Origin: Blasia pusilla
Taxonomy: Eukaryota
Assembly (NCBI GenBank): GCA_050084515.1
Contig: CM114271.1
Coordinates: 41,416,001 to 41,480,000, forward strand
Length of the DNA: 64,000 nucleotides
Reading direction: 5' to 3'
In this document: piece after piece, positions 20,201-61,915 of the stretch
Numbering within the stretch: the first letter of the stretch is position 1
Layout of the letters: the number at the start of each line of letters is the position of its first letter
Made by a program: the position numbers and the translations under genes
Notes under the pieces: model-generated
Databases searched by the model: none
Seen by the model: only the letters and a program-made list of their open reading frames with translations
What the model was told of the DNA's origin: nothing

Positions 20201-20863
20201 TCGCTTTTGTAGATGCTGATGGAGCGCCGCCGGTTTCAAGTCTCAATCTCGTTCAGTCACATCCCACTTTAAAGACTAGGTCACCATGCTTGTTAGATTC
20301 GAAAGCGCAACCCCTGATGTTGGGGAAGGTACGTGGCGTTTATATGATTGGGTCTAACGAGTTGGAGGAGCAATGTTGTACTTGATGGGGTTTGCCCTGG
20401 ATTCCCCGGAGGAGTCAACGTGTTACGGACCAAAATGGCAGTTAGGTGATGGGTGTCTTAGCTTGTTACCCATTCAATTAACAAATGGAGTGATCTAGTG
20501 ACGGCTAGGAGAGATGGCGATGCTAGCAACATTCAGTAGCACCATCACTTGGCATGATGATTTGATTGAGGGACATGTTAATGTAGAAGACACACCCATG
20601 ATTGACACCCCTGTGGAGAGGAGTATTATGATATATAGCAACATCATTCTAGAGGAGAGGTACTTTTGTAAGGCTCGAGTGAGGAGCTTGGACGCTTGGT
20701 TGATGGGCACATGTGGATGGCCTGGAATGAGGAATTGCACCATAGCGTGATGGGTGAGTGAAACTCGGAGTGCTACGATGTCGTAATTGGACACCAGAGC
20801 CATTGTGTGGTGCATCTTAGAGAAGGGTATTTGAGGGCATATGACTTAGATTGGGCAGGGAGC

Positions 20864-21528
20864 ATCAATTTAGTCATTTCAAGTTGGCCATGTTAAGGCC
20901 AATCGAGTGTTAGACGGGGTAGTGGGTTAGTTGCTACTCAATCTAGGCTATTTTGGGAGATTATGAGGATCTTGCGGGAACATGAGTCTCGTTCTCTAGC
21001 TTACATATTGGAGAATGTTCATATCTTGGGCGATTTTTGGTCACGACTGCACATCAGGTGCCTGCATGGATCAACCATGTAGTATTTTTGGATATGACGA
21101 ACGTAGGTTCACGAGCACATCGCCCACGTTTATGGTGGATCAACTTGGTGTCACACGAGGTGTTGAAGAGCGTATATGCGAGAGTGGAGTGTTCCTCCTA
21201 TTTGTAGGTGGACTATATTCTAGATCATGGTCATTGATCATAGGAAGTGAGGCACAATGATCAACCGCCATTGACTATGATGAACAAGATAGGCATTTCA
21301 GGGTTAGCCTTTCCCACTTGTGTGAGTTTCCTCACTTCCTATACATATAAGGAGGCTGATCTTGGCTTGGTTTGGGATGACCAGACACATCGGTTAGTGG
21401 AGCCGAATGCCAATGAGCAAAAGTGGGAGAGGAGATTTCCCATAGAGGAATCCCGATGCCATGTCGTGGGTCAAGCAATGGACCTAAACTATTTGACATG
21501 GATTATCAACTTAGGTGTATATGGGTAA
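20864..21528 (+). pseudogene. DNMT3-like cytosine-5 methyltransferase domain inside Gypsy pol (motifs IV, VI, VIII, IX/X)
   Basis: INLVISSWPC*GQS..G.GL...S.LFWE (motif IV; PC at 20888-20893, CAA>TAA), YILENV (21002-21019), VFLD..VGSRAHRPRLWWINL (21082-21147), EPNANE..R..VGQAMD (to 21483). Confidence 0.88.
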
Positions 21529-21802: not shown

Positions 21803-22450
21803 TGTCGTGCGCATACACATCGCTACACAACATACATCGCTGTCACCGGACACACACATAAACACGCACAATCCCATGCTAACTCATGGCATCCATACAC
21901 AAAGGTGAGAAGCGAGAATCTTACTTTAATCTCCAATTAAAGTAAGATCCAAACTCTCTCTACATCATCTCACACCATAGCTCTCAAAGGTGTGCACTCT
22001 CTCTCATGTCAAACCAAACCCACTCTCCTAATGAGAGGCTTGGATTACACTCACAAGGCAAGGGACCATAGCTCCGCCGCCTCATGCCAAGAGGTTCAAC
22101 AAAGAGAGAATGAACTCTCAAGCTCTCTCTCCTTGAGGTATACCCCTCCCCTCTCCCAAGCTCTCTCCATGGTAACCTATTCTCCCAAGTCATCTTCTTG
22201 GATCTTGACCTGCTATAGGAGGTCAAGGGCCACTTACAGAAATAGAAAGTTGATTGTATACTCAAAATGGTACTTGCCTAAAATAATAAGTTCTTCAATA
22301 TGGCTCCAAATGAGCCGAAACGAAGGGGAAACCTGCTCTCTCAAGTTTATCGGGACTTCAACATGTCATCCTTGACCTACTGAGCATGTCCTCCGCTACT
22401 AACAAAGGCGCTGTACTAGATCTCATCGATCTATCCTAAGAGACGTGACA
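21803..22450 (-). mobile_element. Solo LTR (TGT...ACA, 648 bp) inserted antisense into Gypsy copy 1
   Basis: Termini tgtcg.../...gtgaca. Flanks gatt|...|ggtt are a 4-bp TSD with one mismatch and restore the frame gat ggg gtt gca cca. Reverse complement closely matches 47355-47820 and more weakly 25813-26230. Confidence 0.85.
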
Positions 22451-25363
22451 GGTTGCACCATACATATACAATAGTCACGATGGAGTAGGAGCCAAGTATG
22501 GATCCTAAGTTGACATGAGGAGATCGATATTGGATATACCAATTCTGATCTTTAAGAGACATGTGAGTTGTTTTGTATTTAATATTCATGATTTGGATAT
22601 GTTGAAGGGTTTGACCGTGGATCCGTTATGAGTTATCTAGCGACACGCCGATCTTGAACGATTCTACATATTATTGATATGGAAAGGGCCCTGATTCAGA
22701 GCAAGAGCCAAAACTTGGCTGGAGCAGCTAAAACTAGTGGAGATGTTGCATGGAGAGTATGTTTGTGCCACTATTCTGCTTGCCAAGAAGGATGTGCTTG
22801 GCAATCAGAAAAATATTTCAATTGGATGTATGGGTCTACCGACCTATCAATTGGTAGACGAAGTTTGATAGGTATGCCATGCCCACTCTTGAGGAGATCT
22901 TTTATGCTATGCGACATGCAAAGATCTTCACTTCATTAGATCTTCGAGGTAGATACCATTAGTTGCCTATCAGATTGGAGGACAAACAAAAGACAATATT
23001 TTGGGGCATCGATCCAAATAAGAAGGATTTTTTGTACTAGTGGCGATTCTTAACATTTGGGTTAAAGAACATCACGACAGAGTTTCCGAGGGTTGTGGAT
23101 AGGATCTTGATAGGTCTGGATTTTGCTAGGAGTTATATTGATGACATCATAATCTTTAGCACCACAATTGAGGAACATCAACAACATTTGGAGAAGATAT
23201 TTCGACGATTGCAGTAACATGGGCTGAAGCTATATCCGCGCAAGTGCAAGTTCTTATATGACCTGATTGAGTACTTGGATCATATAGTATACCGATGTGC
23301 CATTGGGGTTTAATAGATGAAGGTAGAGGCTATCTCACACATTCCATGCCCTACAGATGTAAGTCGAGTTCATGCATTTATGGGTTTGGAAATAACTTAC
23401 AAATTGCACGTCAAGGTTTTTAATTTGATTGTGAAGCCACTAACCTTATTGATCGAGGTGGATCATGAGTGGCACGAGGGGGATGAGCAAGAGAGAGCAT
23501 TTCAATTGCTCAAGGACAGGTTGACGTCCGCACCCATACCGGGAGACCTAGCATTGTTAGAGGATGTCCTTTTTAGCTGCATCTAGATTGGAGTATGCTG
23601 AGGCTTGGAGAAGGCTACCATCCAACATGATGATGAGGGTAGAGAGTTTGTAGTGGCTTACGCTCCTCGCTCAAAAAATGGTGTAGAGGAAAAGTATAGG
23701 TGGTATGAGTGTGAGTGCTTGGTTGTAGTGTCGACTATCACATATTTCACATGTTACTTATTCGACAACCGCTTTAATATCATTATTGATCACCAATCAC
23801 TTAAGTGGTTGATGGAGTTTGAAAAACTTACGGGGAAGCTTGCGAGGTGGGCTCTCTTATTGCAAGAATATGACTTTCATATGGTACATCAACCTGGGAT
23901 GCTTAACCAGGATGGAGGTGATTTGACATGTAATCCATGCGTGAGTCAAGGAGATGCGATTGGAGATTTTAGGCATGGAGGGAGTAATGGGGAGGAAATG
24001 ATATCGGGATGACACGCGTGAACATATTTGGGCTTGTTGGCTATGGAGGGCAAAAGTGTTGAGATTTCAATGGTGAGGTTTGATGGAGAGCCATAAAATC
24101 CAAAGGACGATGAGGAGACGACAAATGCTCAAGATATTTACGAGGATGGACTAGTCTTGGAGTACATACGTACTAGCAGCGTTGCAAGCATCGTGGATGC
24201 TAGAGAGCGAGATTGGATTCTATAGGGAGCCAAATGGTTCCTGTGGGAGAGGACGTATGTGTTGCAAGTGCGGGAGGATGATAGAGTACATGTAGTGCCT
24301 CATGCTTTGTAAAGAGCACGTTTGGTGTAACATCCCTATGAGGAAATTTGGTCAATTTGGAATGAAGCGGACTTACAACTTGCTCCAAATATAATATTGG
24401 TGGCGAGGTATGCAGACTCATGCTAGATGCATGGTATGTGATCAAGTTCGGACATAATTCAATGCTCCGACTCCACACTTATATCCACTATTGATCATGG
24501 ATTTAAGTTATAGATGAATTTTGGATTTTGCATGACCTTAACGTTTGATGGAGTGCCATAGTCATTATGTGCTGGTGATGGTTAAGCACTTCTTGAAGTG
24601 CTTAGAGTTGGTTGTATTGTTTGATAAAGAAAGTGACGGGATAGTATATGCCTTCTTAGATGGAGTGTTGAGTCATTGTGGCGGATCAACTATGGTGTCG
24701 ACAAACCATAGTTTCGCAAGGAGTTTCAAGCCTTGTGTGATGAGGTGCTGATCAACCATCACACTACTTTACCAGATTATCTTGAGGCGGATGGACTAGG
24801 GAAGAGAGTTGTCCAGACAATGAAGAGAAGTTTACGCAAACATGGCTTGCATAAAGGTCACCTAGGAGATTGGGACCTACAATTTCCAGGTTGGAGATGG
24901 GATACAAATTCAGCAAGCAAACATCCTTAGTGTCTTTCTTGGTTTTGTTGCTTTATGGTCGAGAACCTGATTTACTTGCGGCCATTCATCGCCATGCGAG
25001 TGAGGTGTTTAACCTCGATGACCTCGATATATAGATGCGAGCATGTTCTCAAAGGGTTAATTGTTGTAGAGAGTTATACCCATGGCGTTTGAGAACTTTA
25101 TGATTGCGCATCATCGGGATACTTTGAGGGATGCGAATATTCGAGGAGGTGATTATCAACCGACAATATGGAGATTTCACCAAGGAGACTATGTTTACTT
25201 ACACCATACGGCATCTATGATGTTGGATGTGACCGCATGGTGCATCATCTAGAGAGCGCGAGATATCTTACCATCCGGTATTCTTTTAGGTGCGCCATAT
25301 TACCTTCCTAATATTGATGGTACAGTTGATCCGAGTTGAGCAATGGTTTCTATAGGCTTATGT

Positions 25364-25497
25364 TGCATGTTGTGTGGTTCCGCCCGTGGTGCAGCCAAAA
25401 TTTTAATCTGTGATGGGTGTTTGAGAGGGTGGCAATGGCATGTCTAACGCTACTTCTCACTAGGGTGTCTCGGGGATAATGGATGTGCCCCATATAC
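25364..25497 (+). pseudogene. PHD finger (C4HC3) at the C-terminus of the Gypsy integrase
   Basis: CMLCGSARGAAKILICDGCLRGW[fs]MACLTLLLTRVSRG*WMCP matches PHD spacing CxxC..L.CD.C...H..CL.P.L..VP.G.W.CP; the His codon is lost at the frameshift. Confidence 0.82.
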
Positions 25498-25812
25498 ACA
25501 TAGAGTGAATATTAGGTAGTCATAGATCCAAACTTGTGTCTATGACAAAAAAGAGACTAACGACAGGGCCTCATGAGCACCTGAACTTTTTGCTCTTAGT
25601 GTATTAGAGATGTGTGTCATGGTAGGTAGGGATAGATGGCTATCTGGAGTTAGAGGGACCTTACCACCAACTAGGGGGCGATTTGGAGATATTTTGGTAC
25701 TCGATCCTCTCAATATTTGGATGTTATGAGTTGGCATCGTATCTTTTGTGTTTGTGTATGTATTCAGTGATATCTATGTATGCTGTATAGCGTGTATATG
25801 CACACGATAACT

Positions 25813-26230
25813 ATCACGTCTTTTGGGATGGATGAATGAGTTCATAGTAGGACGCCTTCGAGGATATTGGAGAACATCCTCATGAGGTTAAGGATGACCC
25901 GCTACAGCTTCGCGTAACCTAAGAGAACATGTTTTTCCTTTGTTTTGGCTCATTTGGAGCTATATAGTGTAGCCTACTACTTTGGGTAAATTTTGGTTAA
26001 TAATCATAGTTAAATTTCCACTTTTGGAAGTGTAGATTGATCTCCTCAAGAGTCAAGGAGGTGACATGCAAACATAGGTTAATATGGAGAGAGTTCGGGA
26101 GAGGGAAGGGGTACACCCAAAGAGATAGAGCTTTGCAGCTCATTAACTCTTTGTTGAACCTCTTGGCATGAGGCGGCGAAGTTATGGTCCTCCTTGCCTT
26201 ATGAGTAACCCAAAAGGAGGACCATAGCTA
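25813..26230 (+). mobile_element. Diverged LTR of the same family, directly downstream of Gypsy copy 1
   Basis: Starts tatcacgtctttt (cf. tgtcacgtctttt at 47355) and shares ttggcatgaggcggcg..ttatggtcc and ggctcattt.gagc with the other LTR copies. Confidence 0.75.
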
Positions 26231-47354: not shown

Positions 47355-50300
47355 TGTCACGTCTTTTAGGATAGATCGGTGAGATCTAGTAGAGCGCCTT
47401 CGTGAGTAGTGGAATACAAGCTCAGTAGGTTGAGGATGACCTGCTGAGGCCCGAGAAACCTGAGATAGCAGGTTTCCCCTTCGTTTCGGCTCATTTAGAG
47501 CCATATTGAGGAATAGGTAAGTATCATTTTGAATAGATCATCGACTTTCTATTTTTGGTAAGTGGTCCTTGACCTCCTACATCATGTCAAGAGCCAAGGA
47601 GGTGACTTGGGAGAATAGGTTACCATGGAGAGAGCTTGGGAGAGGGAAGAGGTATACCTCATGGAGAGAGAGCTTGATAGCTCATTCTCAAGCTCTTGGC
47701 ATGAGGCGGCGGAGCTATGGTCCCTTGCCTTGTGAGTGTAACTCAAGCCTCTCATTAGGAGAGTGGGTTTGGTTTGACATGAGAGAGAGTGCACACCTTT
47801 GAGAGCTATGGTGTGAGATCTGAGGAGCACCATGTAGCTTGCTGATTTGTATTTTTATAGGTTTTTACATTTTTGTTGGGAGAAATCAGCGCGGAACCGC
47901 TGCCAAATTTTGTGTAGGAGAAAGAGACATTGGGCCTCAACAGAAATTTTACAACATTCCATGTCAGTTTTTACTCAAATCTCCAATTTTAAATATTTTT
48001 TCACGTCATTGTAGATCGTGAAGCTGTGCACGTTGTGCAACAAACGGTGCCAATTTAGAGTTGCGAGTAAAAAGTTATGGTTAATCTTGAAAAACTACCA
48101 TTGCTAGGCGATTTTTAGGCGCCCGAGTGAGAGTTTGCGTGAGGCTTACACTTGCTTGCGCCGGTTGATCAACGTCACTCAGGGGGTGAAAAAGGCTCAG
48201 GGTATCCAGTCATAGTACGCGATGTTGGACCGGACCCTGCAGACACAAGTCCGGGAGGGGGTGCTTCTTATGAACACCTCCCCTACATTGAGAGATGTTT
48301 TTAGGACCGCCGAGAACATTGAGCGCAACATGGTGGAGGAGAGCATAGCCACCATGGATTCTGGGCGAGAGCAATCACGATTGTCTGCACCACCTATGCA
48401 GCAATGTGGACTCCGAGATAGGTCGACTGTGGCACCACGAGCTCAGGGAGGATATTGGGGGGCCGTGCCACAGACACTTGCGCCTTCATATGCAGCTCAG
48501 CAACAGCCGCCTACTATTACTTGTTGGTCATGTGGTGGAGCCCATCATCAACGCGATTGCACTCGTCAAGGTCATGGACGTGTGCCTCAGCATGGAGGAG
48601 GAGATGGTGCTGCACCAGGAGGTTATCAATGTGACTATTGTCAATGGTATGGTCATACACGTGCCAAGTGTTTCATTTTACATCCTGAGTTACGTCCGGA
48701 CCGAGGGCCAGAGAGGGCACTAGAGCATGTAGCCGGTCCGGGTGGGCTCGAGATCATGCACAACCCGTGGTGCACGATCTCGAGCCCACCGGACCGGCTC
48801 CTTGTCCCCCAACAGGACCCACCCGGTGTCCTGTTGGGGGACAAGGAGCTGGAGTTGCCCGAGAGGGTGGTGGAGCTACCCATGGAGGAAGTAGAGTCCC
48901 ACCACCTAGACGCGTGGAGGGAGATGCCAGGCGTGAGGCTAGGATGGCTACTCAGATACATCAGTTACAGGAGCAGATTACCGCTATGCCGAATCCGTGG
49001 CATCCACATCATATGGAGCAGCCAGAGATATGGAGGATCTTGGTTGGATATGCGGGGTTGCCCAGATGGAGGCAGCCACAGTTGTGACGTGTGGAGCAGC
49101 CGTAGAGTTGGATCCACAGCGAGGGGAAGCTAGGGAACAGACTAGGCTTCCTCAATCTTTCACACTGTTCGAGGCGATGAGGACCCCATCGATGGGTCCT
49201 GATTAGAGTTCCTGGAGAGTTGGTGATGTTTTTGGTGTGCAGGCACGAAGGGCGATGGGAGAAGCGAGTGCGACGACTCCTATTGCTGATGCTCAGGACG
49301 AGCATGTGTCAAGCACGTTGTTGGGGGCGGCCACCGTTATGTAACGCGCTCCTTTATTTTTTGCTTCCGATGTTATGACGTTGGGAGGTACGCCCGCCGA
49401 GGCTTTTCGGCTGGCCGCTACGCTATGTGAGGGTGGAGTTGGAGTTCCTGCATCACGTTCAGAGGTGATTGCAGAGGAGGTGATGGACCTGCCCTTGGAG
49501 CGGATGCTCGGACAGTCCACGTCAGATTCATGGCAGGCTGCAGCTGCTAGGATGGCAAAGATGCCCGCTAGACCCGCGATAGAGCTGCAATGGCTTCTCC
49601 TGGTGTTGTGTTGCTAGATAACCAAGGAGAAGTCTTTTAGTTGGTGAGTCATCGAGGTAGACCTTTTAGTCCGCAACGCGTCTTGTTGGATTGAGGAGCG
49701 CAACCCGTGATGTTGGGGAAAGCGTAATTCAGAGGATTGGGCTTGACAAGAGCCGATATGGAGCGTTGTCCATTCCAGATACAGACATCCTTGGGTGGAG
49801 CGAGTACCATACAGTATATCACCCGATAGGAGGTCCTAGTGAGGATTTGTACGGGACATCCTACAGATGAGTCCGTGGTGCGAGCCAAGGCGATAGTGAT
49901 TGATGCAGAGTCCTATGACGTCTTGGTTGGTGGAGCAGTGTTATATCCGATGGGGTTTTCCCTGGATTATTGGGAGGAGTCAGCGTCCTATAGACCAGGA
50001 TGGCAGTAAGGTGATGGGCGTCTTAGCTCATTACCTGTTTGATTCACAGGTGCAGTGATCGAGCGACGGCCAAGAGAGGTGGTGACCTTAGCAGCATTTA
50101 GCAGTGCCATCACTTGGCCTAGTGATTTGATTGAGGGACATGTCCATGCAGAGGATACTCCCGTTCCTGAAATTTCTATGGAGAGGAGTGTTATGGTAAC
50201 CGCATCATTTTGTGGAGGAGAGGTGCCGATGTGGGGTTCGACGAAGGAGCTTCGACGATTGGCAGATGAGCACGTGCAGGCCACGTGGAGCAAGGCGTTT

Positions 50301-50469: not shown

Positions 50470-53351
50470 GCTGTAGATTTGTCCTTGGCGGTGATGACCT
50501 TGGACACCAACTCCGCTCTCTCGAGGGCTTGCTCCTCCGCATCTCCTTCAGAAAATTCTTCAGGCTGCATAAAATTCGGGATGTCGTCCCTACCTGCGGC
50601 CACTGCATCATACCTGTCAAAGATTATTATCGTTGATGTCCTCGAGGTAGGTGAAGTCCAGCGAGATGGGGCAATTCTCAACTTCCCAGTCAGACATGCT
50701 TTGAGCCATCTCCATGTCGTAGATGGAAAATGTCTCTCCATGAGGCGGAGAAGCCCACAATTTGTAGGTTGCCGGTATTTTTCGCCACGTACTTGCATTC
50801 TTATAATGGACGAGGTACCTGAACATCATGCGTTGGGCAGCTCTTTGTCGTGATGCATCGGCCTGAAGATCTTGCTTTTTCTTTGCGAAATCCCTTTTCT
50901 TCGCCTCTATTTCTTCATCAAGGTCTACTTGAGGGAGGATGTGATCCTCGAACATCATCATGAAGCCTGGGTTGTTTATGGGCTAGTCCCGGATGTCATC
51001 CAGCCAAAGTTCGAAATCTTCAGCACTCTCCAGGTTTGCTTCCTCCGGAAGTGGTTCTATTTTTTTCATCTCTGCTTGGAGACCCATGAGCATGGACTTC
51101 TCGAGAAGCCGCAACGCGTCCCCGAATGACCATTCATGGAGCCAATGGGAGATCACTCGATCAGAGACACCCGGAGGATGGTGTGCCACCCTCTTTTGGG
51201 CCTCTCTGCCCTCGAGACTGATTTTCATCATTCGGATTCTCCTAAATTCCGAAATTCCAGACAAGGCAAATCGATGGACGCGGTCGAGAGACACTTTCTC
51301 CCCAATCCGACCCTGCGGATCTTCATCCCTCTTCCGCTGGCGTTTGATTATCGCCTTCAGCTCCTTGTGGAAATCGGGGCCAAGTTCGGGGTTGATAATG
51401 GTGATGTAGCGGTGCATCTTGCTTGCAGTGCAGTTCGTAGCTGCACATACTGCAGCTTGGATGAACCTAGCACGCTAAGACGCAGACACGTTCTCCCTCC
51501 GCTCTAGCTCCCATGAAGCGCTCTTCTTGGCGGCCTGTATCTTCGACCAGCAAAGGATTTTCACGGCTACATCTTGGGAAATAAATGTATGTGCCCAAGT
51601 CTTTTTTTTATTTGAGCCTCCTTCGCCAGCTTCTCATTTACAAGGGCGTCCCCAAGAACCCCTTGTATTCTGCCGGGTGCATCGTTAGCACTTTCTTCAC
51701 CCGATCGCAATCCTCGATCCAGTGGTGGGTGACATTCCCCTCGGATACAATCTTGCACATCCAAACACAATATAAGAATTTTTGCAAGCTACATGGGTTC
51801 CTGCAACCCGTCGGACTCCAACAGGTTGTCAGATAATTTGTATTCAGAGAGTGGTCTCCGCGGAAAAAGTGAACATATCAACCTGTCGGAGTCCGACAGG
51901 TTGCGCAATTTCAAGCAAATCTGCAATTTGACACCAAAAATCAAGCTCCCCTACAGGGATCACCTACCCATGCCGGTGATTGCAACCCGTCGGAGTCCGA
52001 TGAGTTGCTTTCGGCCAAAAATATCCTTAAAAAAATAGCCAATCGAGCAACTCGTCGGACTCTGACGAGTTGCTTTCGGCCAAAAACATCCTAAAAAAAA
52101 TGGCCAGTCAAGCAACTCGTCAGACTTCGACGAGTTGCTTTCGGCTAAAAACATCCTAAAAACAGTGGCCAGTCAAGCAACTCGTCGCACTTTGACGAGT
52201 TGCTTTAATGCATCCGATGTTTTGTTAGCACTCCTTAAACAACTTGTCGGAGTTTGATGGTTTGCAGCAATCAAAATACAGGAAGAGGAAACTTACGTGT
52301 TCATGGCACGCATGGCCATTTCCACCGTCGCCATGTGATGAGGGTATGGGTGTAGCACGAGTGCCTCCAATGAGTTTTGGCGCTCCTCTACAAACTGGGT
52401 CCATGCCATGAACCTGTGGTTTCCATCCCAGATTAAGAAATACAGGTTCCGCATCCACCTGAATTTCGTCCCCTCAATCGCTCTTCTGAATTGGTGATCT
52501 CTCATCCTCCAGAATGTGTCGAGCGGTTCCAAGTCCTCCTCCATCACCAACGCTTGGGTTCCATGTTCATCATTAGGCTGAACATAGAACGGAGGGAAGT
52601 TGTCGACGTAGGATGTTGTCCCTGCCGATTGTTTCAGCTTCACAATATCCTCGTCAGACGGAATTTCACGGACGTACTCCATTGTCCGCAATCGGCAAAG
52701 TGGAATTCTTGGGGCATTCTGGCCCTCCATCAGTGCCATCTGCTTTACCACCTGTCACAACGAGGACAAGGTCAATAAACTACATTGAATTGCCAATGAA
52801 TTGAAACATGGGCCTTCACATAACTCAAAGAACAAAGATCGTATCTTACCCGCTCAAAGATTGGGTCGGTGTCTTGGCCCGCCAACTTCTCTAGGACACC
52901 AGCTGGCAAGTCCACTAGAAACTCATCGATCCGATAGAGGTCAATTTCTTCCGCCGAGCTAAGAGACGAGGAAGACTACTCTCCTGCTTCTTCAGAGATG
53001 TCCACCATCTCCATGCTGGCGGTCCTCATGAATTGATCTTCTGTCACTTGAACTTCGGCCGTTTCCTCAGCCAATTTTATATTGATTGTGTCCCCGGAAT
53101 TCATCGGGGACATTTCCTACATCTCAACACTTTCGGTTGGACGGGCCGAGCTTTCTTCAATAGCAATCGATTTTTCCCTTCGAGCTTTTTCCAATTTTGC
53201 TCTCCTCACCGACGTGTCCAGACGCTTCTTTTCATGCTTCTCCTCGGCGATCCTTTTCTTCAAGGCTTACGACGCCTCAGCCTTTGCGTGGAGTTCTGGA
53301 CTTGGGAGTGAAGCTCCCAGCCTTGCTTGCTTGAGATTTTTTCCTCGTCAT
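50470..53351 (-). pseudogene. Left, 3'-truncated copy of a spliced ParB/Srx-domain gene
   Basis: ATG at 53351 (MTRKKSQASK) with TATA at 53567-53573. Exon 52751-~52295 encodes PRIPLCRL..VR..D..KLK.S....Y..IWDGNHRFMAW (DGNHR at 52427-52413). Reverse complement of 57029-60149. Confidence 0.8.
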
Positions 53352-54215
53352 TGTTCCCGAAAATGCCTCGTCCTCGACAACGAAATTACTTTCTGTGCAC
53401 GATGAGTCGCTCAGATGAGTCGCCTTGATGAGGCGCTCGAATCGTCTCGCGATGAGTCTCGAGATGAGTCGTCGTGTAAAGCGCCTCTTGGTATCTGGTC
53501 CGCTGCTATGCTGAAGAGCAATCGAGATGCTGAAACGAAAAATCAGAAATGAGCGAACCATAGCCTATTTATAATTTTTGGGCCGTTGGGCTGATCGTTG
53601 GGTCGCATCGTCGTTCCGACAGCAACCTGTCGGCTGTTATGGAGGTCGGGACGTGAAAACCACCAACTTGATGGTCTCCGACGGGTTAGAGACATCCGTC
53701 CTAGTCAAGCTATCCTGGCAATCCGTCGAAGTCCGACAGGTTGCGCGTCTCCGCCATCTTGGGGCAAGAACCCGAGGTACCCACGCAACCCGTTGGAGAC
53801 CGGCGGGTTGCACCCTTCTCTTGTCTTGGGATAACAAGGCGGGGTACCCGCGCAACCTGTCGGAGGCCGATGTATTGCACGCTTCCTTCATGTAAGCGTT
53901 ACAAGGCGTGGCACTTGCGCAACCCGTGGTAGGGAGGTGCGGTAAGAGGAGAGGAAGAGAGGAAGAGAGGAGAGAGGAAGAGGAGAGAGAGGAGAGAGGA
54001 AACTACCTTCAATCGAAAGAGATATATTTTTTTAAGAGAGTTTCTTGCGATTTGAAGAGAGTTTCCGTTGGGTTGAACAGAGGAAAATTTCGGTGTGAAT
54101 TTTTTTGCACTTTTTTGCTCAGTTCTTAAGCACTCCCACATTTTGTTTTTCCTCTTCCACATTTTGGCAACTCCTCTGAGTCCGACGAGTTGCAAATTGC
54201 ACAAAATTAAGAAAA

Positions 54216-55303: not shown

Positions 55304-57028
55304 AAGTCAAAGAAATAAGCTACCTGTCAGAACCAGACAAGTTGCAAGGCCGAGGCATCTCATGAACGACCTTGCGACCTATCGGTTCTTGATGTGTTGC
55401 AACACCCAAGAACCACCTAGTGCAACCCGTCGGATTTTGACGAAATGTGAAGTTGGAGTCAATGCCAGATCTACTGACCTAGGAGTTGCAAAGGTAGAGC
55501 TCGGTGCACTAGGAAATTCTTGACCGTTATTTGGGAAACTGAGGAATTCAAAGGCAAGCCGTAAACTCTGTATTAACCATTTGCTAGAGGTAGGAGATTT
55601 AATACTTTACGGTTTACAATCACTGAATGGATTGTCTCACCTATTATGTCCTCCATACCGTCCACCCTAAAATCCTTGGACACAAAGATGGTTCCAATTT
55701 GGAGAAGAAATCGAACTCAGAGAAAATTTTCATCCACTGGTATGAAAGACTCACGAGCTTGCGGCCGAACGATTTCTGATTAAGGAAGGGCCGCTAGATG
55801 ACTGCCACAAGTAAGCTTCACATAATTATCCCTTCCCAGAAGATTCCATTGGGAGGAGACTGAGAATAAGAATGAAGATAAGAATGGGAATGGGTATGAG
55901 AATGAGAATGAGAATGTTCAATTTATAGTGAATAGGGACTCAGATTCTCCTGACAGAATTTGACTGATAAGATGAAGTTTGGTAGGTGAGATTTTCTGAC
56001 ATGATGGATTCAATTATGTTGCAACTAGTCGGAGTCCGATGGGTTGCAGAATTTGGGAATCAGAGACGTGGATTGCGAAGCACCCAGTTTCTTTTTTTTG
56101 TTTCCGTGTCCCAATGCAATTTGGAAGCCGTCGGAGTCCGTGGAGTTGGTACTTGCTTCATGCCGACCAATGGTCTTTTGAGACGATTTTGCTAGCATCA
56201 AACACGAGACATCGCTTGCATTTGCTAAGGTAACTAATCGCTCGGGACTGTTACGGGATTTTCCAACTCATGGTAAACCTTGTGACCCGTCGGATTGCAA
56301 GAGGTTGCCTCGGAACTATCCGTTGTCGCATTTTTACCCGAGGGATAGAAAATAGTGCAACATGTCTGTTATCGACAGGTTTCCTAGGAACCTCGCCTAT
56401 TACCCCAAGATGAGGGAACCGTGCAACCCGTTGGCCTCCGACGGGTTGCGCAAGTGCCTCCCCTTGTAACGCTTACATGAAGGAAGCGTGCAACCCGTCG
56501 GCCGCCGACGAGTTGCGCGGGTACCCCGCCTTGTTATCTCAAGACGAGGGAAGGGTGCAACCCCCCGATCTCGACGGATTGCGCGGATACCGCGTGTTCT
56601 TGCCCCAAGACGGCGGAGGCTCGCAACCTGTCGGACTCCGAGGGGTTGTCAGGATAGCTCGGCTAGGATGGATGCCTCCAACCCGTCGGAGACCGTCAGG
56701 TTGGTGGTTTTCACGTCCAGACCTCCATAACAGCCGACACGTCGCCATCGGAATGACGGTGCGATCTAACGGTCAGCCCAACGGCTGGAAAAGTATAAAT
56801 AGGCTAGGGTTCGCTCATTTTCGGTTTTTCGTTTCGCGATCTCGATTGCTCTTAAGCGCAGTAGCGGACCAGATACCAAGGGGCGCTTTACACGACGACT
56901 CATTGCGAGACTCATCGCGAGACGATTCGAGCGACTCATCAAGGCGACCCATCCGAGCGACTCATCAAGGCGACTCATCGTGCACAGAAAGTAATTTTGT
57001 TGTCAAGGAGGTGGCATTTTCCAGAACA

Positions 57029-60000
57029 ATGACGAGGAAACAAACTCAAGCAAGCAAGGCTGGGAGCTTCACTCCCAAGTCCAGGACTCCTGCGTCACCA
57101 TCTCTAGGGCCTCGTTCAGCCAATAAGATGAGTCAGCAAGAGATCAAGGAGCGCAAAAGGGAAGCAAAGATGCACAGGCAAGAGCTTCTTGCAAAATGTG
57201 TTAAGGAGGCGCTTGAAAAACACAACGCAGAGGTTGAGGCGTCGCAGGACTTGAAGAAAAGGATCGGTGAGGAGAGCAGAATTGGCAAAAGCTCGAAGGG
57301 AAAAAGCGAGTGCCATTGAAGAAAGCCCGGCCTGTCCAACCGAAAGTGTTGAGATGCAGAAAATGTCTCCGATGAAGTCTGGGGACACAATCAATATAAA
57401 ATCGATTGAGGAAACGGGCGAAGTTCAAGTGACAGACGATGAGGTCATGAGGACCGCCAGCGTGGAGATGGTGGACATCTCTGAAGAAGCATGAGAGTGG
57501 TCTTCCTCATCTCTTAGCCCGACCGAAGAAATCGACCTCTATCGGATCGACAAGTTTCCAGTGGACTTGCTAGCTACTGTCCTAGAGCAGTTGGCGGGCC
57601 AAGACACCGACCCAATCTTTGAGAGGGTAAGATACGATCTTTGTTCTTTGAGTTATGTGAAGGCCCATGTTGCGATTCATTGGCAATTGAGTTTTAGTTT
57701 ATTGACCTTGTCCCCGTTGTGACAGGTGGTAAAGCAAGTGGCACTAATGAAGGGCCAGAACGCCCCGAGAATTCCACTTTGCCGATTGCAGAAAATGGAG
57801 TACGTCCGCAAAATTCAGTCTGATGAGGATACTGCGAAGCTAAAACAATCGGCAACGACAGCATCCTACGTCGACAACTTCCCTCCGTTCTATGTTCAGC
57901 CTTACGATGAACATGGAACGCAAGCGCTGGTGACGGAGGAGGACTTGGAAGCGCTCGACATATTCTAGAGGAATTAAGAAGGGCGATTGAGGGGATGGAA
58001 TTCAGATGGATGCGGTTCCTGTATTTCTTCATCTGGGATGGAAACCAGAGGTTCATGGCGTGGACCCAATTTGTAGAGGAGCGCCAAAACTCATTGGAGG
58101 CGCATTTCTCCGTGAAGGCAGTCGTGCTACATCCATACCCTCATCACATGGCGATGGTGGAGATGGCATGCATGCCATAAACACGTAAGTTTCCTCTTCC
58201 TTTATTTTGATTGCTGCAAACCGTCGGACTGCGACGAGTTGTTTAACTAGTGGTTACAAAACATCGGATGCCTTAAAGCAACTCGTGGAAGTCCGACAAG
58301 TTGCTTGACTGGCCGCTGTTTTTAGGATGTTTTTGGCCGAAAGCAAATCGTCTGAGTCCGACGAGTTGCTTGACTGGCCACTATTTTTAGGATGTTTTTG
58401 GCCGAAAGCAACTCGTTGGAGTTCCACGAGTTGCTCGAATGGCTGTTGTTTTAGGATGTTTTTGGCCGAAAGCAACTTGTCGGACTCTGACGGGTGGCAT
58501 TCGCCGGCACGGGAAGGTGATCGGAGTAGGGGAGCTTGATTTTTGGCGTCAAATTGCAGCTTTACTTGAAATTGCACAACCTGTCAGACTCCAACGGGTT
58601 GATATGTTCACTTTTCCCGCGGAGACCACTCTCTGAATATAAATTATCTGACAACCCGTCGGAGTCTGACGGGTTGTAACTAGGCAATCACAAATCTGAA
58701 TGCAATCTGTCGGACTCCGATGGGTTGCAATATTTAGCTCGTAGCTACCATTCCGACCATTAGGTGTGGCGACCTGTCGGAGTCGGACGGGTTGCAGGAA
58801 CCCATGTAGCTTGCAAAAATTCTTATATTATGGTTGGATGTGCAGGATTGTATCCGAGGGGAATGTCACCCACCACTGGATCGAGGATTTCGATCGGGTG
58901 AAGAAAGTGCCGACGAGGCACCCGGCAGAGTACAAGGGGTTCTTGGGCGACGCCCTTGTAAATGAGATGCTGGCAAAGGGGGCTCAAATAAAAAAAAAAA
59001 AGACTTTTATTTTCCAAGCTGCAGCCGTGACAATCCTTTGCTGGTCGAAGATACATGCCGCCATGAAGAGCGCTTCATTGGAGCTAGAGGGGAGAGAGAA
59101 CGTGTCTGTGTCTGAGCGTGCTAAGTTCATCCAAGCTGCAGTATCTGCAGCTATGAAGTAGATTGCAAGCAAGATCCAGCGCTACATTGCCATTCTCAAC
59201 CCCGAACAAGGAGCTGAAGGCGATAATCAAGCGCTAGCGGAAGAGGAATGAAGATCCACAGGGTCGGATTGGGGAGAAAGTGTCTCTCGACTGCGTCCAT
59301 CGATTTTTCTTATCTAGAATTTCGGAATTTAGGAGATTATTGAGACTGATTTTCATCAGTCTCTATGCCCTCGAGACTGATGAAAATCAGTCTCGAGGGC
59401 AGAGAGGCCCAAAAGAGGGCGGAACACCATCCTCCGGGTGTCTCTGATCCAGTGATCTCCCACTGGCTCCGTGAATGGTCATTCTGGGACGCATTGCGGC
59501 TTCTCAGGAAGTCCATGCTCGTGGGTCTCCAAGCAGAGCTAAAAAAAATTGAGCCAATTCGAGAGGAAGAAAACCTTGACAGTAGTGAAGATTTCAAACT
59601 TTGGCTGGTTGACATCCGGGACAAGCCCATAAAACACCCAGGCTTCAGGATGATTTTCAAGGATCACATCCTCCCTTAGGTAGACCTTGATGGAGAAATA
59701 GAGGCGAAGAAAAGGGATTTCGCAAAGAAAAAATGAGATCTTCAAGAGCAGGCGGTCGATGCATCTCGAGTAAGAGCTTCCTAACGCATGGTGTTCAGGT
59801 ACCTCGTCCATTGTAAGAATGCAGGTACGTGGCGAAAAATACCGACAACTTCCAAATTGTGGGCTTGTCCGCCTGATGGAGAGACATTTTGCATGTACGA
59901 CATGGAGATGGCTCAAAGCATGTCCGACTGGGAGGTGGAGAATTGCCCCATCTGGCCGGACTTCAACGACCCTGAGGACACAACGGAGAAAAATCTACGC

Positions 60001-61915
60001 CTGGTCTATGATGCAATGGATGCAGGTAGGTACGACATCCCCAATTTTGTGCAACCTGAAGACTTTTTCGAAGGACATACAGAGGAGCAAGCCCTCAAGA
60101 CAACGGAGTTGGTGTCCAAGGTCGTCACCGCCAAGGACAAATCTACAGCGGGTCTCAAAGCTAAGGCGAGGGGATCGAAGAATTCTGAGGCCGAGTCTTC
60201 CCAAAAAGAGGCTGAGAATTCAAGGTGAGAGGTGGAATCGTCCGGGCGAGCGGGGAGAGAGGGTCGGACCAGGTTCTTCGCAAAAAAAACTCCACCAGAG
60301 TTTGAGGTAATAGAGACCCTAACAAGCCGACTGCAGACTCGGGAGAAGCGGAAGTGAGAGGCGACAGGTTTGTCCCGAGGAGTAGACCAGGATGTGGAAT
60401 ACACTCCATCATCCTTGGGAAGATATAGAGAAACAACAACCTGGACAAGCGTCATCATTCACTGCACGAATCATCTAGATGAGCTGCAAAGTTTTAGTTC
60501 CCAAGCGTCGACACCCGCCATCGACAAATTAACAACGCTGGGACGGGCATGCTCTGTGGACGGTCCATGGGGAGGTCGAGGAGGTGGCAATGGATCTCTT
60601 CGTCGCTGATTTTCCCTCGGGGTTGCGCTAATGAGACGAGAATCCGTCTGACGGTGTCCCAAATTGGAATGTCCCTCTTTCTTATGACCAGATCGCGCTC
60701 CTATTTTCCTTTGCAGACGCTTATCTCAGTGACAGGGGCTGTTTCTTGGTCTTGACTGGAGGGAGCGAGGATGAGCTCTTCAACCTGCAGTGCGTCAAGT
60801 GGTCGCTAAAGTGGAGGATGGCGCAATCGTGGGTCATCAAGAACGAGTACCCACTCCGATCGGCGACGAGTCAAATCCGGGTAAGGGCTCTTAATCCATC
60901 TCCAAATTGTCTTGCTCCGACGGGTTGCATGTCTCCATGCATGCAACCCGTCGGATTGTCTGAGCTGGAGACTTTGATGGTGCAATCTGTCTAAAAGCCA
61001 CGGGTTGCAAATTTACAGCAAGTCTCCATTGGATGAATGCAACCAGTTGGAACCTGACGGGTTGCAAGTGCTTATGCTTTTCCTTTTGTTTCTAGATGAT
61101 GCAACCCGTCTGAAAGCGACGGGTTGCTCTTAGCCAACCATGGGTTGCTCTAAGCCAGCAACTTGTTGCCTTCCGAGGGGTTGCTCATGGCAAAACAAAT
61201 CACTAACACTTGTAAAACAACCCGTCGGACTCCGACAAGTTGCTCCAATGTTAGGACTAAGTTCTCTGGGGTTTAGCAAAGTTCTTTGGGAATGAGTTGC
61301 ACATTGTGTCAACATTCTGATAGTATACCTTTCTTGTTGTTGCATACTGAAATTAGCTCTTTCTTGTTGCTGACATTTTTTCCAATCTGCTTCTTTACAG
61401 ATGGACCACTCCTTTGTCTATTGTTTTGTAAGGCCCGAGCACAACTTCCAAGTGTTTCAGATCCTCGATCCAGTGGATCCATGCTCCGATGGGTACAACT
61501 TAGATTGTTTATACAATTCCCCCCCTGGGGAATTTACATGCAAAATGGTACCCCCTTACTTGGAGGAAGGGAAAAGTCGCCAACGCTGATGCAAACACTC
61601 ATCGAGCTCTGCTCAAGGCCGGGTGACTTGGTGTTCAACTTAGTGGGCCTTTCAGGGGCGAGTATCAGAGGCGTCTGGCAGAGTGGCAGGAACACTATCT
61701 GCCTTGAGGGAAGGCAAGAACTATTTGACCTTTGCAAAGAGGCAAAGGTAGACTACGACAGGCTAGTTGGGGCGTACAACTCTCCTCCGAAGCCGAGAGC
61801 TCCGGTTCCACACCCACCATTGGTAGTGACACCATTGTCACTTCCTACGATTTCAAAAATTGGGAGGGCAAGGCTGACAATAATTCTGGTAGAGCTCTCG
61901 GACGATGACGAGTGA
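57029..61915 (+). pseudogene. Spliced ParB/Srx-like + beta-class N6A/N4C DNA methyltransferase-like gene (right copy, complete domain set, disrupted)
   Basis: TATAAAT at 56794 and ATG at 57029. Introns 57627-57725, from 58185, and 60881-61400. DGNQR at 58037-58051; motif IV-like DLFVADFPSG at 60593-60622; motif X/I/II region REKSPTLMQTLIELCSRPGDLVFNLVGLSGASIRGVWQSGRNTICLE at ~61568-61708. Confidence 0.8.

Follow-up and report, generated by a model that had tools for sequence, protein, structure and literature searches.

At one point in the genome of Blasia pusilla, within a stretch of 64,000 nucleotides that was analysed whole and is here called the window, a first-pass annotation had placed a PHD finger of the C4HC3 type at the end of the integrase of a Ty3/Gypsy element that also encodes a cytosine DNA methyltransferase (DNMT). 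Chromoviruses, for example MAGGY, carry a chromodomain at the C-terminus of their integrase, and animal DNMT3 is guided by an ADD domain; with these precedents in mind the annotation supposed that the element joins a reader of the histone H3 tail and a DNMT3-like writer in one polyprotein, and that target-site choice and methylation may be coupled. The locus raises the question of whether such a finger exists, what it might read, and whether it ever shares a chain with the methyltransferase. The role of methyltransferases borne by retrotransposons was left open in the paper that described them. We find that the PHD domain is real, that the window copy is dead, and that this kind of element is already known; no function is claimed for the window copy.

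The coordinates first assigned to the finger are exact, running from the first Cys codon at 25364 to the end of the last ligand codon at 25497, and a TAG at 25501-25503 closes the frame. In translation the first four Cys ligands are legible (C-M-L-C...C-D-G-C) and in frame with the integrase tail, while the second half of the finger becomes readable one base over from the first. Pairwise comparison with one natural sibling identifies a 1-nt deletion at the His codon that shifts the frame, a stop codon immediately 5' of the conserved Trp codon, replacement of the last Cys by Tyr, an extra stop closely upstream of the finger, and a linker 5' of it that is short by ~45 nt. Pfam returns no match to the window PHD in any of the three frames, and with frameshift, stop and missing last Cys the window's own copy does not qualify as a PHD finger (PF00628). 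Around it Pfam recovers in succession DNA_methylase, RVT_1, RNase H and the integrase zinc domain (Table 1), and the integrase relic is riddled with stops and frameshifts. Neither gag nor the 5' repeat A1 of the element was found in the window, where the family match begins at 20361, and the element end (the remaining A2 and B2) has no match in the window either. The stretch is best read as what decay has left of the terminal domain in a Ty3/Gypsy family that is high in copy number and of the same kind as KnitGypsy-Dnmt3, a reading that belongs to the overall explanation set out below and shares its standing as reasonably probable.

Table 1. Features of the decayed element in the window, with the basis of each assignment.
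Feature	Coordinates	Strand	Basis
Aspartic protease remnant and linker	20290..20835	+	Family match from 20361; Asp_protease in homologues
DNMT3-like C5 cytosine methyltransferase relic	20843..21513	+	Pfam DNA_methylase E 4.3e-5 (over cut-off); tblastn; L080 homologue
Solo A+B repeat unit of the same family, reverse insertion	21803..22450	-	~10 nt upstream of stop site; target duplication 3/4 bases
Position of the family TAG-CAA-CCA in-frame site between DNMT and RT, decayed here	22455..22470	+	By eye, family alignment
Reverse transcriptase (RT) and RNase H (RH) relic	22554..23871	+	Pfam RVT_1 E 1.9e-17, RT_RNaseH E 6.9e-20; tblastn
Integrase (INT) relic: HHCC zinc domain, DDE core, GPY/F-like stretch, beta-barrel C-terminal domain, linker	24344..25363	+	Pfam Integrase_H2C2 E 0.0024; tblastn with L080 ORF; structure model
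PHD finger (C4HC3), broken	25364..25497	+	Last domain of RT-RH-INT-PHD frame; window versus siblings versus solved PHDs
G-tract (PPT-like) directly before B1	25673..25678	+	Same tract in siblings; G5 in L080
Internal repeat B1 (~128 nt)	25683..25809	+	Family comparison
Repeat A2 (part), starts 2 nt after B1	25812..26213	+	Family comparison

The case for the domain rests with the family. Searched at the DNA level, the own genome, 390 Mb in 26 contigs, gave 4,941 candidates, of which 40 were scored and all 40 matched, siblings lying at 73-81%. Nineteen siblings were picked by likeness to window positions 24900-25700, which biases the sample towards PHD-bearing copies, and the counts are not a family-wide frequency: 18 of the 19 retain all eight C4HC3 ligands, and 14 combine the finger ligands with open reading through the finger. 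All five sibling ORFs that contain the finger pass the Pfam PHD cut-off (24), with 42.9-45.9 bits and E ~1e-11. By both ligands and Pfam score the sibling family is thus a PHD finger (PF00628) family; the C4HC3 assignment and the Pfam check proposed for it hold for the siblings and fail for the window copy. Copy L006 has one open frame that takes in the PHD and part of the integrase core. Across 48 loci (20 from one set and 28 of 30 from another, the query copy and one duplicate place having been dropped) the stretches that link the integrase core to the PHD are in frame at the modal spacing, which is found in 12 of 18, 13 of 17 and 20 of 21 copies, and share no common stop; the finger is therefore present and in frame with integrase, the two points on which the annotation had been prepared to give up its reading. 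Between L006 and L080 (an intact element from a metagenome) pN is 0.29 and pS 0.76 over the 45 codons of the PHD, indicating that the finger had been under purifying selection; the corresponding values for the integrase part are 0.22 and 0.79. An artefact or chance cysteine pattern was ruled out by this family conservation, and capture of a host PHD gene at the window locus by the identical position of the finger in copies spread over many contigs. The longest open frame in 20 ten-kb stretches is 496 aa, none of those own-genome copies being intact; intact relatives of the PHD-integrase elements are present in public assemblies.

The finger occupies the C-terminus of the integrase, the place of the chromodomain in chromoviruses, as had been claimed, but it does not follow integrase directly: some 180 residues, comprising a GPY/F-like stretch and a beta-barrel, separate the catalytic Glu from the PHD. 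More consequential is the fate of the single polyprotein, since a conserved stop codon separates DNMT from RT-RH-INT-PHD. The family shares the order Gag-PR-DNMT / TAG-CAR-YYA / RT-RH-INT-PHD, PR being the protease. The modal distance from DNMT to RT is 813 nt, a multiple of three, and none of 38 copies is open across it. A stop stands at the flank-anchored site in 37 of the 38, as TAG CAA CCA in 33, and all 25 copies with modal DNMT-RT spacing have the same stop codon. These sites were located by two anchors, which replaced a loose DNA pattern of whose 47 matches only seven were genuine. Upstream, L030 and L038 read openly from Gag into the protease, and the protease-DNMT interval is in frame at the modal spacing, each in few copies.

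The intact L080 has the same arrangement, with a PR-DNMT frame of 728 aa and an RT-RH-INT-PHD frame of 1047 aa, in one reading frame and parted solely by TAG CAA TCA. Eighty metagenome loci yielded 25 with DNMT before RT and, after near-duplicates were dropped, 14 distinct linkers. In ten of these an in-frame TAR-CAR-YYA precedes a conserved Trp by 23-27 codons, where shuffling leads one to expect 0.5 in any frame; of the other four, one has the motif elsewhere and three are without it. The stop is TAA rather than TAG in seven of the ten, all decayed copies, and nine of the ten linkers look related, leaving approximately three independent lineages at the DNA level. Separately, gag and PR-DNMT lie in different frames at 2477-2606 of L080, the close homologues P0121/P0122 being continuous there; this is either a single indel or a second recoding site.

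Among 31 DNMT homologues in which motif X could be located, 24 end 75-170 residues later without RT (one of them a gene model running into integrase), and six run into RT, including three Marchantia gene models that are missing part of the linker. P0234, from a sister branch, is a single frame of 2811 aa with PR, DNMT, RT, RH, INT and PHD and no stop; hence a DNMT-RT-INT-PHD fusion is itself viable. In tobamoviruses UAG-CARYYA serves as the type I read-through signal (PMC5382211, accessible text), and it gives ~6-10% read-through in stably transformed plants according to the text available from PMC2754532. The family site has precisely this form, an in-frame UAG followed by CARYYA, and it is conserved.

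Transcription across the site is visible in three public RNA runs, in which 2,317-2,694 reads fall on a 3.2-kb stretch of copy L043 at an identity of at least 85%. Nearly all lie in one direction, which is sense in the usual stranded libraries, and depth across the stop is 60-74. None of the 13 joints listed on this stretch spans the stop, and no cluster of starts past the stop appears among the listed RNA results for it; one replaced junction of two reads, in one run, does span the stop and was set aside. Because the reads derive from other copies or a related organism (only 1-3 reads per run match at 99% identity or above), they are evidence only for unspliced transcription of the family across the site. 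An in-frame RNA joint of 1071 nt at L043 1000-2072, seen with 9-23 reads in each of the three runs, skips most of RT and RNase H; it is without clean GT-AG ends and perhaps represents an expressed deleted copy.

Were the stop a true end of the ORF, RT-RH-INT-PHD would arise by re-initiation, from a separate transcript or by splicing, and DNMT and PHD would never stand in one chain. The second-frame database ORFs P0003, P0005 and P0006 do start at a Met soon past the stop, and in the own family a Met lies 15 codons beyond it and before RT, which re-initiation could use. Yet the frame continues past the stop without a spacer, the next six bases fit CARYYA in lineages with differing flanks, the Met before the conserved Trp is missing in six of the ten metagenome linkers and stands at three different places in the other four, and among the listed RNA results no joint removes the stop and no start cluster follows it. 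We regard a true ORF end as rather improbable. Read-through is preferred: the methyltransferase would probably be made at the level of Gag, and integrase-PHD by read-through only. Given the stop and an aspartic protease encoded upstream, DNMT and PHD share a chain only in the read-through product, and probably not after processing.

The best solved matches of the family PHD are CHD4, PHF12, Lid, PHD1 of KDM5B and KDM5A, KAT6A, DPF3, PHF21A, ATXR5, BAZ2/BAZ2B, AIRE and UHRF1, with no finger of the ING, BPTF or TAF3 type among the best 60 of 87 solved matches. In a model of the integrase-PHD (mean pLDDT 64, but ~80-89 in barrel and PHD) the finger superposes on the PHDs of DPF2, DPF3 and ATXR5 at 0.6-1.3 Å over 45-49 residues, and the region before it weakly matches foamy-virus and Ty3 integrases. 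According to the available text of a review (PMC3241642), PHDs that read K4me3 have an invariant cage Trp and readers of unmodified K4 an acidic cluster before Cys1; an acidic patch likewise matters for binding (PMC5415848, accessible text). Among 117 homologues the residue two before the His ligand is Gly in 110, Ala in five and Pro in two, and Trp in none. This position we take to be that of the cage Trp, and it is well supported that the family PHD would not be a reader of H3K4me3. A hydrophobic residue precedes Cys3 in all 117, Asp follows it in 108, and a PxGxW pocket is present in 95. The Met-Leu-x-Cys-Asp strand and Pro-x-Gly-x-Trp pocket presumably hold H3 Ala1-Arg2 in the solved relatives, and by its matches and residues the PHD is nearest to readers of unmethylated H3.

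The proposal of an H3-tail reader thus keeps its strand and pocket, which resemble those of readers of unmethylated K4, and loses its acidic residues in the own clade, where one precedes Cys1 in only two of 14 members and the patch in the Cys2-Cys3 loop occurs in none of 14; the other, mostly algal relatives have them in 65 of 87 and 82 of 87 respectively. With that loss histone reading becomes no better than probable, and binding of the H3 tail by the family PHD is predicted with only moderate confidence. The finger may instead be kept for a non-histone task, such as binding DNA or RNA, contacting a host factor or stabilising the integrase multimer. The missing acidic residues and basic surface of the own-clade finger would suit such a role, and non-histone partners are reported for some PHDs in the accessible part of PMC3241642, whereas the retained strand and pocket and the close superposition on the DPF2, DPF3 and ATXR5 fingers speak against it; on balance this alternative is possible but unlikely.

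A search with the integrase-PHD fragment matched 251 longer proteins, and 117 of the 120 homologues listed contain the full C4HC3 motif, in a range from liverworts to green algae that includes Marchantia (79% identity), Klebsormidium, Pleodorina, Tetrabaena, Volvox and Chromochloris. DNMT shares the ORF in 50 of the 120 listed, lying before RT in three, between RNase H and integrase in 23, and in an ORF without RT in 24; a further 29 encode RT without DNMT. A quick integrase tree of 86 rows (midpoint root, no bootstrap, no outgroup), from which 34 of the 120 were left out as fragments without RT or DNMT or as short matches, divides into two groups, each with SH-aLRT 99. The first, of 33 rows, holds the own family, Marchantia, Klebsormidium and all rows with DNMT before RT; the second, of 53 rows, holds the named chlorophytes and all rows with DNMT between RNase H and integrase. 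In this quick tree the own family groups with P0008, a partial INT-PHD protein of K. nitens (SH-aLRT 99). DNMT lies in the ORF of RT in the relatives P0014/P0234, P0017 and P0118, but not in the own family. The PHD is there in ORFs with DNMT ahead of RT, in those with DNMT between RNase H and integrase and in those that lack DNMT; therefore it travels with integrase and not with DNMT. The PHD would accordingly be a fixed partner of integrase, while DNMT appears to have moved or been captured twice.

The methyltransferase itself answers to its description as a DNMT3-like writer: the best solved matches of the L080 homologue are DNMT3A/3C/3B, and the motifs DLFGG, PCQ, ENV and RxRxxW are found in most copies of a non-rearranged domain. 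Reader and writer do occur in the same element family, but on opposite sides of the stop and ~1,000 residues apart. A single reader-writer unit, in which the PHD guides or activates the methyltransferase as ADD does in animal DNMT3 and so couples target choice to methylation, could draw on the DNMT3-like enzyme, on the kinship of the PHD with the unmethylated-H3 class, on the 50 listed homologues with DNMT and integrase-PHD in one ORF (above all the 23 with DNMT between RNase H and integrase, an algal group in which an uncut DNMT-INT-PHD is possible) and on the single open frame of P0234. In the own family, however, it must contend with a conserved stop and the whole of RT-RH-INT between the two domains and with a protease encoded upstream, and throughout the lineage with a PHD that stays beside integrase at every DNMT position. 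Nothing in these data points to ADD-like guidance of DNMT by the PHD, and we judge such a unit quite improbable.

Some members of this lineage have features of their own. Past the PHD, residues 1675-1991 of P0058 and the corresponding region of ~80 algal-group homologues form a long tail; an atlas search with the tail of one algal relative gave weak leads (0.86, all scores being <0.9) to adenine methyltransferase-like clusters, and algal relatives with the tail may carry a second methyltransferase. P0163 (cluster of P0005), a plant-type element labelled uncultured cyanobacterium, is probably bin contamination. The genes annotated as 'hypothetical' or methyltransferase in P0140, P0142, P0148 and P0149 (Marchantia), P0141 (Calypogeia) and P0158 (Sphagnum) are pieces of this Gypsy-DNMT element, and counts of host DNMT genes in bryophytes may be inflated by such pieces.

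The termini of the element are split repeats, laid out as A (~515)...internal...B (~128)-NN-A-B, beginning TGTCACG and finishing CGACA. B and A are separated by exactly two bases in the 17 junctions found. An exact 4-nt target duplication flanks all three of the elements whose two ends were tested, and four of six units classed as solo have one that matches at 3-4 of four bases. The order PR-RT-RH-INT, the DDE integrase, the TG..CA ends and the 4-nt duplication identify a Ty3/Gypsy element; the A1-B1-A2-B2 arrangement defines DIRS-type split direct repeats (PMC4157794), and these are present in the family. The finger had been placed before a PPT, but what is found is a G5-6 tract ahead of the internal repeat B1, seen in all ten siblings printed, with a G5 tract at a like place in L080; a classical pair of complete LTRs with the PPT abutting the 3' LTR is absent, the tract preceding B1 and not A2. 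No target-site preference was seen, the first four flank bases being all different but for one pair, and the three exact duplications do not fit the NCGN preference of Phygy in the accessible text of the REXdb paper (PMC6317226), where neither a PHD nor a methyltransferase is named.

The B-NN-A junction, for example at L035 8941-9713 (oriented) and likewise in L080, reads CA-NN-TG and resembles the circle junction of two retroviral LTRs, in an element with a DDE integrase. The family is often nested in itself (L024, L031, L032, L044, L070, L059 and window 21803-22450) and occurs in nine of 29 examined 3' flanks, a hint of clustering in a sample without a genome-wide control. Elsewhere in the window, 47355-47819 is a second copy of the A repeat, beginning TGTCACGTC and 85-98% complementary to parts of 21967-22450, and 49926-50409 matches the protease-DNMT linker at 20361-20835 at 77-78%, being a fragment of another copy or of a related element. 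Positions 50470-53933 and 56435-60149 form a large inverted repeat with arms of ~3.5 kb, 85-93% complementary and densely filled by tandem units of 65 and 67 nt whose core is the palindromic GCAAC..GTTGC.

The explanation that we prefer, and that taken whole we consider reasonably probable, is a KnitGypsy-Dnmt3-like element with a leaky stop, which makes DNMT in bulk and PHD-integrase rarely. Full-length RNA would give mostly Gag-PR-DNMT and, through read-through, a minority of Gag-PR-DNMT-RT-RH-INT-PHD; it is very likely, judging from the conserved signal, that ribosomes would pass the stop a few percent of the time, the bulk product being Gag-PR-DNMT and the minority bearing RT-RH-INT-PHD. 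The protease would then, as seems likely, cut the chain to leave many DNMT molecules per particle, methylating the cDNA or the new insertion, and few of integrase-PHD. The Discussion of PMC5890265 suggests methylation of cDNA as the task of such enzymes, and synthesis of DNMT at the Gag level would imply that many enzyme copies per particle are wanted, which favours this role over a one-to-one partnership with integrase. With the odds slightly in favour, the PHD may tether the integration complex to nucleosomes through a free H3 N-terminus whose K4 lacks trimethylation, and so keep insertions off active promoters in a manner comparable to the action of the chromodomain in chromoviruses. Reader and writer would then be linked through packaging and timing in the particle and not by an ADD-like intramolecular switch.

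More tentatively, and with somewhat less than even confidence, an old Gypsy lineage of green plants, from chlorophytes to bryophytes, may be envisaged in which a PHD replaces the chromodomain, a DNMT3-like enzyme sits at either of two places, and in land plants a leaky UAG of tobamovirus type follows DNMT, giving Gag-level DNMT, pre-methylated cDNA, rare RT and PHD-tipped integrase, and DIRS-like ends with a CA-NN-TG junction. A PHD-tipped integrase across hundreds of green-lineage elements would represent a second solution to the choice of landing site, beside chromodomains. What is new appears to be the conserved leaky stop and the breadth of the PHD-integrase lineage, and the stop suggests that the supposed single polyprotein is instead a switch of stoichiometry.

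PHD-bearing and DNMT-bearing Gypsy elements have each been published already. Literature searches, in which subscription papers, Repbase entries and theses were thinly covered, found neither a read-through site in DNMT Gypsy elements nor the pairing of PHD and DNMT across the lineage. The text available from PMC12344493 mentions retrotransposon DNMT3s by citation alone. PHDs are common accessory domains of Chlamydomonas transposons (PMC8557442, accessible text), and PHD-transposon fusions are surveyed in 10.1101/2021.11.30.470311 (in part available). One published example is Gypsy-7a_cRei of Chlamydomonas reinhardtii, whose Gypsy polyprotein includes a PHD finger that its authors suggest makes harmful insertions fewer, and whose insertions are 2.6-fold enriched between genes (10.1101/2022.06.16.496473); as described in the accessible text, that element has ordinary LTRs and no DNMT is named, in contrast to the split repeats and DNMT of the Blasia family.

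As in chromoviruses, a domain of chromatin-reader type closes the integrase, in the Blasia family a PHD; Pfam finds no chromodomain in the sibling ORFs, L080 or P0234. EpiLTRs join a chromodomain reader to DNMT and DAM in one element, and their DNMT, a sister of DNMT4, is described there as separate from streptophyte Gypsy-DNMT3 (10.64898/2026.05.21.726589, accessible text). The finger resembles KDM5 PHD1, CHD4 PHD2 and the BAZ2 and UHRF1 PHDs in C4HC3 spacing, MLxCD strand, PxGxW pocket and want of a cage Trp, and differs from this class, as far as it is described in the available parts of PMC3241642 and PMC5415848, in that the own clade has lost both the acidic residues at the N-terminus and the acidic patch of the wall. 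The candidate read-through stop resembles those of the tobamovirus replicase, SIRE1 pol-env and the rice RIRE2 candidate, each with one in-frame UAG and CARYYA between coding blocks (PMC5382211, PMC2754532, PMC2829016 and PMC3441728, in their accessible text); unlike these type I cases it lies inside the usual pol, after the protease and a captured methyltransferase and before RT.

The closest system overall is KnitGypsy-Dnmt3, the DNMT3-bearing Gypsy with DIRS-like repeats published for Klebsormidium nitens (de Mendoza et al. 2018; PMC5890265). Of PMC5890265, the text and three supplement files, which do not extend to Fig. 4c, contain no occurrence of 'PHD', and in the accessible description DNMT shares the Pol ORF with RT and RNase H, whereas in the Blasia family it is on the Gag side of the stop. 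The Blasia family is also high-copy and has liverwort elements as its nearest named relatives. The two share the Ty3/Gypsy pol domains, a non-rearranged DNMT3-like domain and DIRS-type repeats, and the Klebsormidium protein P0008 falls in the same tree group as the Blasia family.
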